NCBI GenBank assembly: GCA_021736985.1
Contig: JAIPEW010000012.1
Location: forward strand, 13,526-77,525
Length of the DNA stretch: 64,000 nt
From: Clostridiales bacterium
Lineage (GTDB): Bacteria; Bacillota; Desulfotomaculia; Desulfotomaculales; VENG01
Direction: 5' to 3'
Position 1 is the first letter of the stretch; every line of letters begins with the position of its first letter. Positions 9,294 to 56,695 of this stretch are shown here, piece by piece. The position numbers and the translations under genes were made by a program. The notes below the pieces were generated by a model that was given only the letters and a program-made list of their open reading frames with translations, ran no database searches and was not told the origin of the DNA.

Positions 9294-10673
9294 TTGATCT
9301 CACCATGTAAAAAAACAATATTCTCTTACAGTAGAATATATTTAACCATTTCTTTTATCTTGATAACAATATCGATTTTTCTAGCAGCAAGTAATTTTAT
9401 ATTGTGGAAAGTAGTAGTTGAAGGTAAAAATGCTGCAGTATCTCAAGATCGCCAGAGTATAAAAGAAGCTGTTCGAAAATTGCATAAGCAGAAAGAAAGT
9501 AAGTACGGATTTGAAGTTGATACAAAACAGGACTTGAGAATTATGCCTTTACTGACATTAAAGCCGCGTGATTTTACATGCGCTAAAACCCGGGATGAAA
9601 TTATTAATCAACTAAATGATAAGGTGGATTTTACAACCAGCGGTGTAGCAATTGTTATTAATGGTAAGGAAAGGGTGTATGTAAGCAATATTGAAACTGC
9701 TAGAAAAAGTTTGAAAAAAATAGAAGACAAGTATTGCAGCCGGCAAGATGCTGCAGTAAGTTTTAAAGAAGAGATTAAATTAACAAGCATGGATGATATT
9801 CTAGCAAATAAAATTGATGATTTGAATAGTGCTGTGGATAAACTTGGCGGTAATGCTCAAAAGACAGAATATTATTGGATACAGGAAGGCGATACCCTGT
9901 GGGATATAGCTTCAGAAAAGGGTATAAAAAGAGAAAAAATATTACAGTTGAATGACGAAATTAAAAATAAAAAATTGCACGTGGGGCAAAAAATTAAGCT
10001 TGTTCAAAAAAAACATTTACTTAACGTAATAACCCGGTATAAAGATGTTCAATGCGAGGATATCCCGTACAGTGTAATGCAAAAAAAGGATAATGAGCTT
10101 GATATTACTGAAAATAAACTAATACAAAAAGGTATTCCAGGTAAAAAAAGAACAATATACCAGGTTGTTGAGGAAAATGGTGCAATAGTTAAACAAAAAA
10201 CAGTAAACCAGGAAATAATTAAAGAACCTCGTCCACAAATTGAAGTTACCGGAAATGATGCGCTGTTGGCTTACAGGTCAGGTAGAGAGATACACTGGCC
10301 GGTACAAGGTAATATAACTTCCGGGTTTGGCTGGAGGCATGGAGAAATGCACAGCGGCGTTGATATTGCAGCTTCTTATGGGGCCCCGGTAGTTGCTATG
10401 ATGTCAGGAAATGTCCAGGTCGCAAAAACTAAAAAACAATATGGAAAATTAATAAAGATAGTGCATAAAAACGGGTTAGCAACTAAATATGCACACTTAT
10501 CCAGTATACTGGTACCTGTGGGAAAGGTGGTATCCAGTGGCGAGAAAATTGGCTCGATAGGTGTAACAGGTAATGCTACAGGCCCTCACCTGCACTTTGA
10601 AGTCTTGATAAACGGAAAAACAGTTGATCCTTTAGAATATTTTAAAAGTTGTGGTATTAACCATAATAATTAA
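9294..10673 (+). CDS. LysM/G5/M23 peptidoglycan DD-endopeptidase
   Basis: N-terminal TM, LysM (GDTLWDIA), G5-like segment, HSGVD and HLHFE motifs. Confidence 0.9.
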   Translation: MISPCKKTIFSYSRIYLTISFILITISIFLAASNFILWKVVVEGKNAAVSQDRQSIKEAVRKLHKQKESKYGFEVDTKQDLRIMPLLTLKPRDFTCAKTRDEIINQLNDKVDFTTSGVAIVINGKERVYVSNIETARKSLKKIEDKYCSRQDAAVSFKEEIKLTSMDDILANKIDDLNSAVDKLGGNAQKTEYYWIQEGDTLWDIASEKGIKREKILQLNDEIKNKKLHVGQKIKLVQKKHLLNVITRYKDVQCEDIPYSVMQKKDNELDITENKLIQKGIPGKKRTIYQVVEENGAIVKQKTVNQEIIKEPRPQIEVTGNDALLAYRSGREIHWPVQGNITSGFGWRHGEMHSGVDIAASYGAPVVAMMSGNVQVAKTKKQYGKLIKIVHKNGLATKYAHLSSILVPVGKVVSSGEKIGSIGVTGNATGPHLHFEVLINGKTVDPLEYFKSCGINHNN

Positions 10674-10838
10674 ATCCCCACGGGCTTTCTAACTACAAAG
10701 GAATTTAAAATTCTTTTGCAGCTAAGTGAATGCCGGTGTTTTTTTTAGGAGATTCCGTGTTTTCTTCCGTAAATTTACCGGCCCCCTTAATTTGCAGATT
10801 GTTATCGCACCATAGCTTTCAGGTAATTTTCTATTTAA
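10670..10838 (-). repeat. TTAA-bounded modular element, degenerate copy
   Basis: Reverse complement reads TTAAATAGAAAATTACCTGAAAGCTATGG...ATAACAATCTGCAAATT...CCCGTGGGGATTTAA, matching the copies at 25305 and 28731. Confidence 0.8.
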
Positions 10839-25304: not shown

Positions 25305-25474
25305 TTAATTCGAAAACTTCTTAAAAACTATGGTTTTAAACGCAAAACAAATTGAAAGGGCCGGTAAATTTCCGGAAGGTAGCGGAGTCTCCTGGAGGAA
25401 ACCACTGGCCCTCCACCAGGCTGTCAGAAGAGTTTTCATACTTCGTTGTGAGCAAGAAACTCGTGGGAGCTTAA
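25305..25474 (+). repeat. TTAA-bounded modular element (short-loop type)
   Basis: TTAATTCGAAAACT...GGGCCGGTAAATTTCCGGAAGGTAGCGGAGTCT...TCAGAAGAGTTTTCATACTTCGTTGTGAGCAAGAAACTCGTGGGAGCTTAA. Confidence 0.9.
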
Positions 25475-26575: not shown

Positions 26576-27946
26576 GTGAAAAAGTGGGTTGCTTTTCTAG
26601 TCGTAGGATTAGTAGCAATAGGAGGTATCGGTTACTGGGGATATACTCAATATACCACTTTACAAAGAGCAGAAGTGGCACTAGCCAATAATTACAATCG
26701 TGCATTTTATAATACTCTTGAACACGTTCAAAACTTGGAAGTACTTTTATCAAAAGGTATGGTTTCTGCTGATAAAATGCAAAACAGTAAGATATTTACC
26801 GAATTGAGGAATCAAGCTTCTGCTGGCCTGGATAGCCTGACCCAGCTTCCCATCAGGGATATAACTGCAGCCCGGACGGCCAAGTTTTTTACCCAGCTGG
26901 GAGATTTTAGCCAGCAAATGGCGGAGAAAGTGGAAAACGGAAAAACGTTAACTGAAAAACAAAGCAAACTAATGCAGAAACTGTATACACAGGCCGGTGA
27001 ATTAAATGAAGAGCTGCAAGAAGTGGAATCCAAGGTAACAGATGGTGATATTGATTTTACCGAGATGAGCAGAAAAACTAGCCGGCAGTTAAATAAAGAA
27101 GGAAAGAGACTGGAAGGGCCTAATTTTCAGACTATTGACAGTAAAATGCAGGAGTATCCAACTTTAATATATGATGGGCCTTTTTCGGATCACCTGGCAG
27201 ATAGAGATCCGGAAGCATTAAAAAACAAGAAAAAAATAACCAGCAATAAAGCCAAGGATACAGCAGAAGATTTTTTCAAGGGTGAAAAAAATAATGATTT
27301 TGTAGCCCAGGTTACTGGAGAAATAGGTGGAAATATCCCTGCTTATCGCGTACAGCTTACACCGCGCAAGAATGGAAAAGTTGTGGGACAGCAAACAATG
27401 GTAGATGTTTCAAAAAAAGGTGGAGAGATGATCTGGATCTTAAATCCCAGGGATATTGATAAGTCAAAAATAAGTATAGACAAGGCTAAAGAAGAAACGA
27501 AAAAATTTTTAAGCAGTCACGGGTATGATAATATGAAATCAAGCTACTACCAGAGGCAGGGTAATATGGTTATATTCAATTTTATAGGCAAAAAAGGGGA
27601 TACCGTGATATATCCTGATATGATGAAGATAACAGTTGCTCTCGATAATGGAGAAGTAGTAGCCCTGGATAACAGAAGTTATTTGATGAATCATCATGAA
27701 AGAGATTTACCCGAGCCAAAATTAACAAGAGAAGAAGCAAAGGAACTCCTGGCAGGTGGAATAGAAGTAGATGGAAAAGGTCGCCTGGCTGTAATACCCA
27801 CGGAAACTTTTGAGGAAAAGTTAACCTGGGAATTTAAGGGGAAAAAGAACGACAATACATTTTTAATTTACATTAATGCCATGAACGGGCAGGAGCAAAA
27901 GATTCTGCAGCTTTTGCGTACTAAAAACGGCACTTTAACTATGTAA
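26576..27946 (+). CDS. ypeB: Germination protein YpeB
   Basis: YPTLIYDGPFSDH motif, PepSY-like C-terminus; GTG 26576 after GGGAGG. Confidence 0.95.
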   Translation: MKKWVAFLVVGLVAIGGIGYWGYTQYTTLQRAEVALANNYNRAFYNTLEHVQNLEVLLSKGMVSADKMQNSKIFTELRNQASAGLDSLTQLPIRDITAARTAKFFTQLGDFSQQMAEKVENGKTLTEKQSKLMQKLYTQAGELNEELQEVESKVTDGDIDFTEMSRKTSRQLNKEGKRLEGPNFQTIDSKMQEYPTLIYDGPFSDHLADRDPEALKNKKKITSNKAKDTAEDFFKGEKNNDFVAQVTGEIGGNIPAYRVQLTPRKNGKVVGQQTMVDVSKKGGEMIWILNPRDIDKSKISIDKAKEETKKFLSSHGYDNMKSSYYQRQGNMVIFNFIGKKGDTVIYPDMMKITVALDNGEVVALDNRSYLMNHHERDLPEPKLTREEAKELLAGGIEVDGKGRLAVIPTETFEEKLTWEFKGKKNDNTFLIYINAMNGQEQKILQLLRTKNGTLTM

Positions 27947-27982
27947 TAATAATTACAGGAAGAATATACTGATAATTATCCG

Positions 27983-28011
27983 TTGACACTGTTTTTGTAT
28001 ACTGCTATAAT
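27983..28011 (+). promoter_or_regulatory. Consensus sigma-A promoter of the T-box leader
   Basis: TTGACA-17 bp-TATAAT. Confidence 0.88.
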
Positions 28012-28036
28012 CTATCCATATATTCTGAAAATTAAT

Positions 28037-28270
28037 GTTATGATGTGGAAAAAGGTACTGGAATCGCTAAGCGAGCCGGGGGTGGTGTGAGCCCGGTCGG
28101 GGAAAGTACCGGGCCTCCTCTGAACAGCAGGCTGAAACCTTACATATGGGAGTAAGTTGTGGCCGTTTACCCGCGTTAAGGGTTAAAAGGGGACTGTTAA
28201 TTGGAACAGTCAACTTGGGTGGTACCGCGAGCAAACTCTCGTCCCTTGTGAAGGGGCGGGAGTTTTTTTT
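28037..28270 (+). promoter_or_regulatory. T-box riboswitch leader
   Basis: AGCGA bulge and GGTGTGA loop of stem I, T-box AACTTGGGTGGTACCGCG (28212-28229), terminator AAACTCTCGTCCCTT-gtg-AAGGGGCGGGAGTTTTTTT. Confidence 0.93.
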
Positions 28271-28272
28271 AT

Positions 28273-28390
28273 TTAAATAGAAAACTCCCTGAAAACTATG
28301 GCTAGGGCTGGAGGAAACCACCGGCCCTCCACCCAACTGTCAGAAGAGTTTTCATACTCCGTTGTGAGCTCTAAGCTCGTGAGCGTTTAA
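28273..28390 (+). repeat. TTAA-bounded element, array unit 1 (118 bp, no internal module)
   Basis: TTAAATAGAAAACTCCCTGA...AGGGCTGG-aggaaacca-CCGGCCCT...TCAGAAGAGTTTTC...GCTCGTGAGCGTTTAA. Confidence 0.92.
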
Positions 28391-28734
28391 TCAGAAAACT
28401 TCCTGAAAATTATGGCCAGGGCCGGGGGATTTCCGGAAGGTAGCGGAGTCTGGGTGCGCTGCATAGCCCGTCAAATCCCGAAATCCCGGCTACTAAGGGC
28501 GTAAAAAACTTGCTGTGTAGTATCATTAAGCGGGTTTCTAAAACATACTTTATGCTCCCAGTAAAAATACGTCCAGCACTCAGCCCATTTCTAATGCAGG
28601 AAAGACAGAAGTAAAAATATACTACTTATAACACAATTTTTTAAAAAGCGCACTGAGTGCTGGACCGGACCTCCACCCAGCCGTCAGAAGAGTTTTCATT
28701 TTCCGTTGTGAGTAAGAAACTCGTGGGGGTTTAA
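28387..28734 (+). repeat. TTAA-bounded element, array unit 2 (348 bp, modules B, B2, C)
   Basis: Same ends; shares one TTAA with each neighbour. Confidence 0.92.
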
Positions 28735-29019
28735 ATAGAAAACTACGTTCTAAAACGCAAATAACAATCTGCAAATTGAAAGGGCTGGTGGATTTACGGA
28801 AGGCAGGGGAGTCTGGGTACGCTGCATAGCCCGTCATTTGCGAAGTGTGATATGGGAGGTGGGAAGTATGACAGTTTGAGGAAGTCTGCTGCGTAGACTT
28901 TTTCTTTTTCCCATCTCTAATTTCCCAATTCTCACTTCTGCCCTTTGCCCTGGTCCTTCACTCAGCAGTCAGAAGATTTTTCATACTACGTTGTTAACAA
29001 GAAGCTCGTGGGAATTTAA
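28731..29019 (+). repeat. TTAA-bounded element, array unit 3 (289 bp, modules A, B, heptamer B1)
   Basis: Same ends; interior homologous to 31081-31340 and 38946-39165. Confidence 0.92.
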
Positions 29020-29148
29020 TTAATAAACCCTGCACAGGATACCTTTAAATCTGCATATGTAAAATTTTTGAAAATGAAGCAGGTATAATCAAGTAAATAT
29101 ATTTGCTGTAAAGTTTTACAAGAAATATTTTGAAAGGAGTGAAAAACA

Positions 29149-29634
29149 GTGAATGAAAAAGAACTTCTCGAGCTGTTGGAAACTAATGCTAATTTGTCAA
29201 TTGCTGAAATATCAGCAATGTTAAATGCTTCCGAGGATGAAGTAAAAGAAAAAATAAAAGAGCTGGAATCGAATAAAACTATATTAAGATACATGACGCT
29301 GGTAAACTGGGAGAAATGTGAAAGAGAACAGGTTGAAGCTTTAATAGAAGTACGTATTACTCCGCAGAGAGAAGTAGGTTATGATGCTGTAGCTGAGCGT
29401 ATATACCGTTTTCCAGAAGTGCGCAGTGTCAAGTTAATGAGCGGTACTTATGATCTGGCAGTATTTGTTGAAGGAAAAAGCATGCAAAAAGTAGCCCATT
29501 TCGTAAACACAAAATTGGCGACAATAGAAGGTGTAGTAAATACTGTAACTCACTTCGTGTTAAAAACTTATAAAAAAGATGGGGTTATTATTGGAGACCA
29601 GGAAGAAGATAGGAGGTTGATGATTTCACCATGA
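29149..29634 (+). CDS. Lrp/AsnC family transcriptional regulator (YugG/AlaR-like)
   Basis: N-terminal HTH, RIYRFPEV...LMSGTYDL...THFVLKTYK. Confidence 0.88.
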   Translation: MNEKELLELLETNANLSIAEISAMLNASEDEVKEKIKELESNKTILRYMTLVNWEKCEREQVEALIEVRITPQREVGYDAVAERIYRFPEVRSVKLMSGTYDLAVFVEGKSMQKVAHFVNTKLATIEGVVNTVTHFVLKTYKKDGVIIGDQEEDRRLMISP

Positions 29635-30875
29635 AAAACATGTGGGAAGAAAAGCTGAGCCCGGTAGTGAAGTCTATACCACCTTCGGGGATCAGGAAAT
29701 TCTTTGATTTAGTAAGTGAAACCAGGGGAGTAATTTCTTTAGGCGTGGGTGAACCTGATTTTGTAACACCGTGGCATATTCGTGAGGCTGCAATTTATGC
29801 GATAGAACAGGGGTATACTATGTACACCTCTAATTACGGGCTTTTAGAGCTTCGTGAAGTAATTAGAGATGATATATACAAAAACTACGAAGTTCAATAT
29901 GACCCGAGAGCGGAAATATTGGTAACTGTAGGAGTAAGTGAAGCTCTGGACCTGGCTATGCGCGCTGTTATTTGCCCAGGGGATGAAGTGTTGATACCCG
30001 AGCCGTCCTATGTCAGTTATGCACCTACAGCGGTGTTGGCAGGGGGAAAACCTGTTTTTATGCAGACTACCATGGATAATAATTTTGTTTTGACTCCTGA
30101 ACAGGTAGAAAAATCGATTACTCCCAGGACCAAGGTCTTGATGATTTCATATCCTAATAATCCAACTGGTGCTGTAATGGATCGTGAAACAATGCTGGGC
30201 CTGGCAGAGGTAGCAAAGAAACATGACTTAATTATAATTTCAGATGAAATTTATGATAAACTTAATTATACGGGGGAACAGACTTGTATGGCTGCTTTAC
30301 CCGGTATGCGAGAGAGAACAATATTATTAAACGGTTTCAGCAAAGCTTATGCCATGACGGGATGGAGAATAGCATATGCTGCTGCTCATGCTGATTTTAT
30401 TAGTGCCATGACAAAAATCCACCAGTATTCTATCCTTTGCACACCAATATCAGCTCAAATGGCAGCCATGGAAGCATTGAAAAACGGGGATACTGCAATG
30501 AAAAAAATGGTGCGTGAATTTAATCGCCGCCGCCACCTTGTATTGCAAGGATTTAAAGATATGGGACTGCCGTGTTTTGAGCCCGGCGGGGCTTTTTATG
30601 CATTCCCTAATATAGAAGTTACTGGTTTATCATCAGAAGAGTTTGCTGAACAGCTGCTGCAGGAAGCCCAGGTTGCAACAGTTCCCGGCAGTGCTTTTGG
30701 AGATGCAGGAGAAGGCTATATACGCGTCTCTTATGCCTCTTCAATAGAAGATATAAGTGAAGCACTGCGGCGTATGGGCAAGTTTGTCCGGCGCAGGGGT
30801 GTATTTCCTAAAAAAGTAAGTACATCTAGCGGCACGGATTTTGTTCAGAAAGAAGGAATTTGTAATAATGTGTAG
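29631..30875 (+). CDS. Class I/II PLP aminotransferase (YugH/AlaT-like)
   Basis: PPSGIRKFFD, YPNNPTG, SDEIY, GFSKAYAMTGWR. Confidence 0.9.
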   Translation: MKNMWEEKLSPVVKSIPPSGIRKFFDLVSETRGVISLGVGEPDFVTPWHIREAAIYAIEQGYTMYTSNYGLLELREVIRDDIYKNYEVQYDPRAEILVTVGVSEALDLAMRAVICPGDEVLIPEPSYVSYAPTAVLAGGKPVFMQTTMDNNFVLTPEQVEKSITPRTKVLMISYPNNPTGAVMDRETMLGLAEVAKKHDLIIISDEIYDKLNYTGEQTCMAALPGMRERTILLNGFSKAYAMTGWRIAYAAAHADFISAMTKIHQYSILCTPISAQMAAMEALKNGDTAMKKMVREFNRRRHLVLQGFKDMGLPCFEPGGAFYAFPNIEVTGLSSEEFAEQLLQEAQVATVPGSAFGDAGEGYIRVSYASSIEDISEALRRMGKFVRRRGVFPKKVSTSSGTDFVQKEGICNNV

Positions 30876-31080: not shown

Positions 31081-31340
31081 TTAATCAGAAAACTCCCTAA
31101 AAGGGGCCAGGACCGGTGGATTTCCGGAAGGCAGCGGAGTCTGGGTGCGCTGCATAGCCTGTCATTTGCGAAGTGTAATGTGGGAAGTGTGATAATTTGA
31201 GGAATTCTGCTGTGTAGACTTTTTCTTTTTCTCACCTTTAATTCCCCACTTCTCACCTCTGCCCTTTGCCCTGGCTCTCCACTCAGCTGCTAGAAGAGTT
31301 TTTATACTATGTTGTGAGCAAGAAGCTCATGGGAGTTTAG
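31081..31340 (+). repeat. TTAA-bounded element (modules B, B1); right end reads TTAG
   Basis: TTAATCAGAAAACTCCC...GCTGCATAGCCTGTCATTTGCGAAGTG...GTTGTGAGCAAGAAGCTCATGGGAGTTTAG. Confidence 0.9.
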
Positions 31341-38891: not shown

Positions 38892-38949
38892 TTAACCTCA
38901 CACGGGCCCGGCAATGCTTAGAAGAAGCGCCGTGTGATTTTCTTATTAA
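38892..38949 (-). repeat. Minimal TTAA-bounded element (58 bp), unit of the second array
   Basis: Reverse complement TTAATAAGAAAATCACACGG...CCCGTGTGAGGTTAA keeps both end signatures. Confidence 0.6.
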
Positions 38950-39165
38950 ATATCCACGAGCTTCTTGTTCACAATGGAGAATGAAAACTCTTCTGACAGC
39001 TGGGTGGAGGGCCGGGGCAAAGGGCAGAGGTGAGAAGTGGGAAATTGTCACACATCCCATCTCCCACATCACACTTCGCAAATGACGGGCTATTCAGCGT
39101 ACTCAGGCTCGCTACCTTCTGGAAATCCGCCAGCCCTTTGAGTTAAACCAGAGTTTTCTGATTAA
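38946..39165 (-). repeat. TTAA-bounded element (modules B, shortened B1)
   Basis: Reverse complement of the same ends and interior as 28731-29019. Confidence 0.92.
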
Positions 39166-56505: not shown

Positions 56506-56695
56506 GTAATACCAGCGACGGTCCTTAACATGAATTGCTCACAACGGAGTATGAAAATTCTTTCAGCAACCATGTATAGGCCGGTGGTACTCGGAGCGGA
56601 CGTGCGGAGGCGCATTCTCCGGCGCCCGAGGCTGATTGAGCTCGGACAATTCTATGTGCCGAAGTAGGGAGCGGAGAACAAAGTTTTCTGATCAA
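56506..56695 (-). repeat. Element copy with unique GC-rich module D and RE2
   Basis: Reverse complement TTGATCAGAAAACT...GAATTTTCATACTCCGTTGTGAGCAATTCATGTTAAGGACCGTCGCTGGTATTAC. Confidence 0.8.

Follow-up and report, generated by a model that had tools for sequence, protein, structure and literature searches.

Results and Discussion

Three head-to-tail units in the window

At positions 28273-29019 of the window (the whole 64,000-nucleotide stretch of DNA that was analysed, part of contig C42 in an assembly of 2.84 Mb, 65 contigs and 39% G+C), three short units lie head to tail. We consider them to be non-autonomous, MITE-like derivatives of an IS110-family insertion sequence (IS), which operates with a DEDD recombinase and a bridge RNA, and assign this explanation as a whole a probability of roughly 0.8. 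IS110-derived miniature elements are a kind described only recently, and the family found here is unusually large, with about 160 copies in the 2.84-Mb genome. The units and their parts are listed below, where minus is the strand of the units because their sense is taken from the parent IS.

28273-28390, minus: unit 1, 118 bp, a minimal element with nothing but two IS-derived ends
28277-28286, minus: window-left end of unit 1, ATAGAAAACT, retaining the first ~10-14 nt of the IS-derived stretch
28316-28390, minus: window-right end module of unit 1, an IS110 left end
28387-28734, minus: unit 2, 348 bp
28391-28400, minus: window-left end of unit 2, TCAGAAAACT, likewise retaining the first ~10-14 nt
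28418-28473, no strand assigned: core module of unit 2, a 56-nt cargo that is not IS-derived
28660-28734, minus: window-right end module of unit 2, an IS110 left end
28731-29019, minus: unit 3, 289 bp
28735-28782, minus: window-left end of unit 3; its reverse complement is homologous to the final ~48 nt at the right end of the IS110 element
28781-28836, no strand assigned: core module of unit 3, the same kind of cargo
28945-29019, minus: window-right end module of unit 3, an IS110 left end
29020-29028, minus: flank of the array, TTAATAAAC; in the IS sense GTTTATTAA ahead of TTAA

The tetranucleotide TTAA occurs at 28273-28276 and 29016-29019, where it borders the array on each side, at 28387-28390, where it is common to units 1 and 2, and at 28731-28734, where it is common to units 2 and 3. 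The initial annotation had described three head-to-tail units of 118, 348 and 289 bp with one TTAA per junction; this was confirmed with recomputed lengths, and both junctions that it quoted, GAGCGT-TTAA-TCAGAAAACT and GGGGGT-TTAA-ATAGAAAACT, were found in the sequence. A repeat search revealed an 81-nt window-right-end repeat in three copies with 100, 83 and 74% identity (unit 1 being the reference), a 15-nt junction repeat, TTTAA(A/T)(T/C)AGAAAACT, also in three copies (motif form TTTAA-NN-AGAAAACT), and a 56-nt internal repeat (the core, D2) with 89% identity in units 2 and 3. The tips of the units have no inverted repeats, TTAAA being the sole sequence common to both. An SRP-RNA origin of the core module was considered and rejected, the local alignment score being 28 against a shuffle mean of 26. 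Five more copies or fragments of the family are present in the window, at 10671-10734 (minus), 25306-25473 (plus), 31082-31339 (plus), 38947-39137 (minus) and 56535-56582 (minus).

The unit ends are the ends of an IS110-family element

The genome carries a near-complete copy of an IS whose ends correspond to those of the units.

C4:114491-117355 (locus L067): near-complete IS copy of this genome, with IS110-family domains and ends
L067:1414-2421: ORF with the domains DEDD_Tnp_IS110 (PF01548, E 8.1e-26) and Transposase_20 (PF02371, E 3.1e-11)
L067:1177-1225, strand opposite the transposase: match of covariance model R1, 49.5 bits, E 1.7e-11

The left junction of the IS reads GTTTTCTGA-TTAA-ACCCCCACGAGC and continues with ACCCCCACGAGCCTGGGGCTCACAACGGAGCATGAAAACTC, the reverse complement of the window-right end of the units. 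In the same manner, reverse-complementing the last ~56 nt of the window-right end gives nt 1 to ~56 of the IS110 left end (TTAAAC-NNN-CACGAGC-loop-GCTCACAACGGAG-NATGAAAACTC; alignment A1), and the window-left end of the units corresponds to the final 15-48 nt at the right end of the IS. This right end closes with ...GTTGACTACGTTTTAAACCGGAGTTTTCTGA-TTAA and, when reverse-complemented, is of the window-left type that unit 3 has (alignment A3). When the IS was compared with the genome by BLAST, its matches to the units were confined to IS nt 1-56 and 1652-1696, and the IS contains no core module. The constant borders that the initial annotation had recognised are the two ends of an IS110-family IS and not the ends of a TTAA-specific transposon. 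The assignment to IS110 is based on the DEDD (RuvC-like) and Tnp domains of the partner, on the IS ends as borders, and on a short core together with the lack of inverted repeats.

At its right junction the IS reads GGAGTTTTCTGA-TTAA-ACGCCCACGAGC. The bases past the right TTAA (ACGCCCACGAGC) are the first of another left-end module of the family, indicating that the IS itself lies head to tail in an array, and the sequence beyond its right end runs on into contig C33 through a 139-nt overlap. The non-coding left end of the IS comprises 237 nt and includes a promoter-like box, TGCTATAAT. In the hairpin within the shared end, 93.2% of cells are paired and 4 pairs are changed on both sides; pairing in its lower half occurs, as U-G wobbles, solely on the strand antisense to the IS, which the model leaves unexplained.

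The sole full-length copy assembled has a recombinase ORF that is frameshifted near L067:2424. Further fragments of recombinase copies lie at C39:33203-33340 and C46:1-121, and the non-coding RNA region of the IS recurs only at C29:9403-9579. All three are contig-end fragments, so that no intact IS partner is present among the assembled copies. A search for a transposase at the "orphan" left ends found none. IS110 recombinase genes of other subfamilies are located at C35:18310-18792, C32:87983-88255 and C57:8-280; these were not matched by tblastn with the C4 recombinase, and no family ends were found beside them.

The same arrangement occurs in other lineages. Of the 151 genomes searched within this order, covariance model R1 matched 9, this genome included, with E values up to 0.01, and four foreign genomes had matches at E below 0.002. 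At three foreign loci (G079:C14, G079:C163 and G030), the end motif is found immediately upstream of, and on the other strand from, an IS110-family recombinase gene. When R1 was applied to 53 homologue loci from other species, chosen from 79 fetched (578 homologue stretches having been reported in total), the motif was at the same place in 4, three from Syntrophomonadaceae and one from Desulfitobacterium. In the G030 copy (L057:130-1427), a 1.3-kb IS630-family IS (DDE_3; 33-nt inverted repeats) is inserted in the IS110 non-coding left end, splitting the candidate bridge RNA and separating the motif from the recombinase gene. Three IS110 copies in a Syntrophomonadaceae MAG (L135-L137) have 35 nt of identical left flank; either a repeated element served as the target of all three, or the IS extends beyond the presumed boundary. 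The Syntrophomonadaceae IS has the flank TTATTTTCTTAC-TAA and the right end TTTATTTTCTTAT-TAA, its left boundary being ambiguous owing to this 35-nt shared flank.

Genome-wide distribution and orientation of the family

Iterated nhmmer over the whole genome detected 161 clusters of modules, with 163 window-right ends, 93 cores and, for the commonest type of left end, 52 copies; these copy numbers are estimates because the assembly is fragmented at repeats and many modules lie at contig ends. Units measure between ~70 and ~560 bp, and their length distribution, drawn from 77 distances with 76 units retained, peaks near 275 bp and again near 348 bp. The modules avoid long ORFs almost completely, only 1 of 163 right ends being inside one, and a further array, of two units with right-end and core modules of the family, is found at C4:66124-66596, after znuA (C4:65325-66053) and before the next gene.

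All 22 right-end pairs less than 700 bp apart were co-oriented, with none head-to-head or tail-to-tail, whereas orientation was mixed in pairs at 3-10 kb (24 same, 20 opposite) and at 10-30 kb (15 and 12, respectively). Thus, head-to-tail order is a property of the arrays and not of strand bias. Replication-strand or gene-strand bias was rejected as the cause of co-orientation, because orientation depended on distance and the counts against flanking genes were balanced (51 opposite/opposite, 43 same/same). Judged by the genome-wide module counts and co-orientation, the array lies far beyond chance, and the single orientation that had been expected of such arrays throughout the genome was found without exception when orientation was tabulated and opposite pairs were sought.

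Neighbouring units were found to have independent origins. Unit 1 is most closely related not to its neighbour but to C39:32752-33112 (94% over 129 nt), unit 2 has relatives at C39:8978-9325 (93% over 348 nt) and C50:1-302 (97% over 302 nt), and the best relative of unit 3 is C44:143195-143495 (87% over 275 nt). In 8 of 8 comparisons, drawn from four adjacent pairs of complete units, the nearest relative was elsewhere in the genome. This rules out local duplication followed by divergence, and the view of the initial annotation that the array is no simple tandem duplication therefore holds. Its description of the interiors as variable needs a qualification: they do differ between neighbours, but each belongs to one of a few subfamilies that recur at other places and is not freely variable.

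BLAST of unit 2 in 40 relatives gave 0 matches, as did a search for the exact core-module pattern across the collection of genome contigs, and nhmmer detected neither core nor left-end modules in any of the loci fetched from other genomes. No paralogous empty sites with both flanks joined were found in the genome. On C34, two partial copies of a group II intron border a 709-nt spacer containing one unit of the family, and this location provided no clean filled/empty pair. The reverse-transcriptase family of this intron has 5 copies or fragments in the genome (e.g. C34:2049-4801 and C12:104679-106610).

An extended target site and its probable regeneration by the inserted element

TTAA by itself was not borne out as the target. 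The genome has 27,952 TTAA sites (9,322 outside long ORFs), and yet 11 of 49 left ends share a TTAA with the right end of another unit; the conserved site amounts to ~13 nt, TTAA-TYARAAAAC in window orientation, so that the favoured target in the IS sense is GTTTTCTRA-TTAA. The 3' end is complete in 123 right ends, of which 25 have another module following within 330 nt and 98 are solo. At the latter, the positions after TTAA are occupied by T (78), T/C (51/30), A (51), A/G (44/31), A (64), A (72), A (55) and A (55). Furthermore, 75 of the 102 TTAA-N3-GAAAAC sites in the genome are tied to elements of the family. Together with the co-orientation of all 22 close pairs, these values show that insertion is both sequence-specific and orientation-specific. 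The degenerate motif beside solo ends could in part represent the decayed end of a lost neighbour unit and not a target preference.

The flank of the array at 29020-29028 is identical at 6 of 9 positions to the left flank of the IS copy, GTTTTCTGA, and we interpret it as the left half of the target first used at this locus. In the IS sense, the left half of the target is represented by GTTTTCTGA in the IS copy and by TTTTYTRA in the solo consensus, and the own right end of the element reads AGTTTTCT-NN. Every complete unit has TTAA at both borders, every junction seen has exactly one TTAA, and the core that flanks the units and the IS is short, with no longer duplication.

These features could be brought together in the following way. 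A unit retains only the two donor ends of the IS, with unrelated non-coding cargo between them, and a full IS would provide the recombinase and the bridge RNA in trans. The unit would be excised as a circle with the junction right end-TTAA-left end, and this junction would recombine with the ~13-nt target GTTTTCTRA-TTAA-A (IS sense), leaving the short core on both sides and fixing the orientation. Because the IS right end (..AGTTTTCTNN-TTAA) is nearly identical to the left half of the target, an integrated copy would remake a good target at its own IS-right end; later copies would then enter there, in the same orientation and with the core shared, and head-to-tail arrays would result. The regeneration of the target had been proposed in the initial annotation for the window-right end. 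A recreated landing site is indeed suggested by the similarity of the IS right end to the left half of the target, but it is at the window-left end, TTAA-NN-AGAAAAC, which corresponds to the IS right end, that a unit resembles the target.

The arrays could also be attributed to homologous recombination between elements with IS110-derived ends, that is, to Campbell-style integration of a circle into a resident copy or to unequal crossing-over. The units are mosaic, with the same end types around different interiors; C37:9330-9677 joins a right end of the unit 1 type to a body of the unit 2 type, and 56-75 nt of homology are common to all units. It also fits that the tandem repeats of CazIS110-1 were transient by-products (bioRxiv 10.1101/2025.10.25.684509). 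Such exchange would not be expected to give the exact single-TTAA junctions described above, and neighbours often belong to different subfamilies with just 83-84% identity over 71-124 nt. Moreover, the IS right end equals the left half of its own target in two lineages, which in itself predicts end-directed insertion. We therefore regard homologous recombination as an unlikely origin of the arrays, although it ranks first among the alternatives.

A candidate bridge RNA in the left end of the IS

The guidance of both the IS and the units by a bridge RNA is suggested by short matches in the non-coding left end. Durrant et al. (PMC11208160) describe that IS110 elements have no inverted terminal repeats and recombine at a short core, that a circular right end-core-left end donor is recombined with the target, and that the bridge RNA is encoded in the left end, its loops pairing with target and donor. 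According to the same text, the left guides of the bridge RNA have the top-strand sequence of the left half plus core, and 22 bp of donor are sufficient if this RNA is provided in trans (PMC11208160).

When the non-coding left end was compared in the sense direction with the 20-nt flank/IS boundary, the longest match was 9 nt in three lineages, in an identical register of 3 flank nt and 6 IS nt. The match changes with the boundary, being TGATTAAAC in this genome, TTACTAACC in L135 and AAAGTAAAC in L138. These matches are short; 78, 82 and 62 of 5000 shuffled RNAs also reached 9 nt, a per-lineage frequency of about 0.012-0.016. A second stretch in the left end, TGATTAAA followed by A, matches the right junction and the usual flank. 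In G079, as read by eye, ACTAAAC stands against the start of that genome's own element, CTAAAC. The consensus fold, predicted from 3 sequences only, contains a stem of 12 pairs, one of which changes from U-A to C-G with pairing retained, and an Rfam search of the IS left end matched no family.

The array occupies the leader of a T-box operon

The array lies between a T-box leader and the genes downstream of it.

28031-28249, plus: T-box leader RF00230 (Rfam, 104.3 bits against a gathering score of 93, E 2.8e-23)
29149-29634, plus: AsnC/Lrp-type regulator gene
29631-30875, plus: class I/II aminotransferase gene

The terminator of the T-box and its U-run finish at ~28271, immediately ahead of the first TTAA. 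In the homologous metagenome locus L028 (48% identity), the T-box stops ~55 nt short of the gene, compared with a gap of ~900 nt here, indicating that the array is an insertion into the leader. The original target would have sat just past the T-box terminator, and the array thus occupies the 5' leader of the asnC-aminotransferase operon, with 747 bp of foreign DNA lying downstream of the terminator and upstream of the start codon. IS110-derived elements can accordingly sit between a T-box riboswitch and its genes. A metagenome scan for the same locus in other strains gave only distant relatives of at most 48% identity. Among sequencing runs, the locus occurred in one, as contigs that break in the repeats and whose joints reflect other copies of the family, and no RNA run containing it was listed. 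An Rfam search over 27000-30000 with E up to 1 found the T-box alone above its gathering score and otherwise no match on the units; the three sub-threshold matches each start in the T-box terminator.

Location within a transcribed leader also raises the idea that the array consists of functional structured RNAs, either a regulatory extension of the leader or small-RNA genes, which are kept for host benefit and whose mobility is incidental. Unit 1 folds well (z = -4.07 on the plus strand), the end hairpin has the compensatory changes mentioned above, the core module is highly conserved, and the cargo of MITEPpu9 is an sRNA (PMC12288879). Set against this are the unbiased orientation relative to flanking genes, the lack of any Rfam family on the units, and the failure of BLAST to detect the family in the 40 relatives; the high similarity of the copies, in addition, suits recent spread over selection. 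Retention of the array for such a function is accordingly improbable.

Relation to known mobile elements

MITEPpu9/ISPpu9 of Pseudomonas putida KT2440 is the closest described case, and a full-text literature search found no other IS110-derived MITE. As in the family reported here, a non-coding element lies between copies of the left and right IS ends, with the core shared at the junction. A MITEPpu9-like MITE is defined by a cargo sRNA that is complementary to an antisense RNA encoded by the IS. The description of MITEPpu9 (PMC12288879) shows that a short element can be mobilised by an IS110 when copies of the IS ends border it; that the element is a short sRNA gene between near-copies of a 43-bp left box (with an inverted repeat) and a 16-bp right box; that it adjoins the IS with a shared AG core or stands alone, and forms minicircles when the transposase is present; and that it has 8 copies, with tandem duplicates in some strains. 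The present family differs in having its core within TTAA in place of AG, about 160 end modules in place of 8 copies, and several cargo subfamilies with arrays of three or more units; in addition, the host is a Firmicute-type spore former, and the left half of the target is reproduced in the IS right end. Mobility was demonstrated by experiment for MITEPpu9, whereas here it is deduced. This genome consequently represents a much larger natural experiment than MITEPpu9, with ~160 end modules, several cargo types and arrays.

With IS621 and other IS110 bridge-RNA recombinases (PMC11208160; PMC13626964; bioRxiv 10.64898/2026.08.31.748434) and with CazIS110-1, the parent IS has in common a recombinase with DEDD and Tnp domains, an extended non-coding left end, the lack of inverted terminal repeats, a short core at each junction, and insertion that is specific for sequence and orientation. 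As in IS621, the guide stretches would be the top strand of the left half plus core, the guides here being candidates. The RNA fold predicted from three sequences is not the two-internal-loop fold of IS621, and the left halves of target and donor are nearly identical here, as judged from sequence. For CazIS110-1, tandem repeats were found in 3 of 96 colonies (bioRxiv 10.1101/2025.10.25.684509), and for IS621, "half-match" recombination by the donor arms alone has been reported. Our results suggest a design rule in which the left half of the donor equals the left half of the target. Such a rule would account for tandem as well as "half-match" insertions and predicts the places at which programmed systems will stack copies; the natural behaviour of bridge-RNA recombinases is of interest in this respect because they are being developed as genome-writing tools.

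The arrays resemble integron cassette arrays in being head to tail, with constant recombination sites, variable content and site-specific addition of circles. This is an analogy only; there is no IntI and no attC here, the cargo is non-coding, and many loci are used in place of one platform. It may be possible, as a speculative extension, that one recombinase-RNA pair acts as a "cassette stacker" that, owing to the equality of the IS right end and the left half of its target, adds protein-less cargo (the 56-nt core, for example) in head-to-tail order at numerous loci, integron-like without an integrase, and that cargo RNAs brought into leaders, the present T-box leader among them, are perhaps selected regulators and not junk. 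BOX elements of Streptococcus pneumoniae are likewise modular, hairpin-forming, intergenic repeats inside transcription units, although the borders of the present units are the ends of an IS110 element. To our knowledge, BOX modules are not known as IS ends.

The units are also reminiscent of ends-only elements of IS200/IS605 (PATEs) or of REP-like elements (REPIN-RAYT), which would be moved single-stranded by a Y1 (HUH) transposase and inserted 3' of TTAA. Like these, they are short, abundant, intergenic and hairpin-bearing, would be mobilised in trans, and have a tetranucleotide at both borders; the ends are asymmetric with a subterminal hairpin, and the genome encodes Y1 transposases and TnpB. 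PATEs and REPINs require similar hairpins at both ends together with a Y1 transposase, and neither applies to the units, whose left and right ends have no similar hairpins. The sequences downstream of 12 TnpB matches showed no similarity to the unit ends (local scores 14-25, match +2), and IS605/TnpB right ends were rejected as a source of the units. RAYT-like genes were rejected as mobilisers because the four long ones are flanked by their own, different palindromic repeats. Since the unit ends match those of the IS110 IS, an origin from Y1-mobilised elements is very improbable. The least probable origin is a cut-and-paste DDE transposon with TTAA target-site duplication, as piggyBac or IS5, for although TTAA flanks both sides of each complete unit, there are no terminal inverted repeats (the tips share TTAAA only), the strict head-to-tail order and the ~13-nt site would be unexpected, and no matching DDE transposase is found among the multi-copy genes.

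The four RAYT-like Y1 transposase genes are diverged, with open frames of 258-315 aa and a C-terminal extension.

C39:13387-16722 (L006): RAYT-like gene
C33:811-4143 (L005): RAYT-like gene
C59:95144-98476 (L002): RAYT-like gene
C1:43605-46925 (L003): RAYT-like gene

All four are unrelated to the IS110-derived repeat family. The gene on C1 is flanked by just short (~20-nt) repeated matches, and those on C39, C33 and C59 have their own multi-copy palindromic repeats of ~43, ~62 and ~30 nt, respectively, in the manner of REPIN-RAYT systems.
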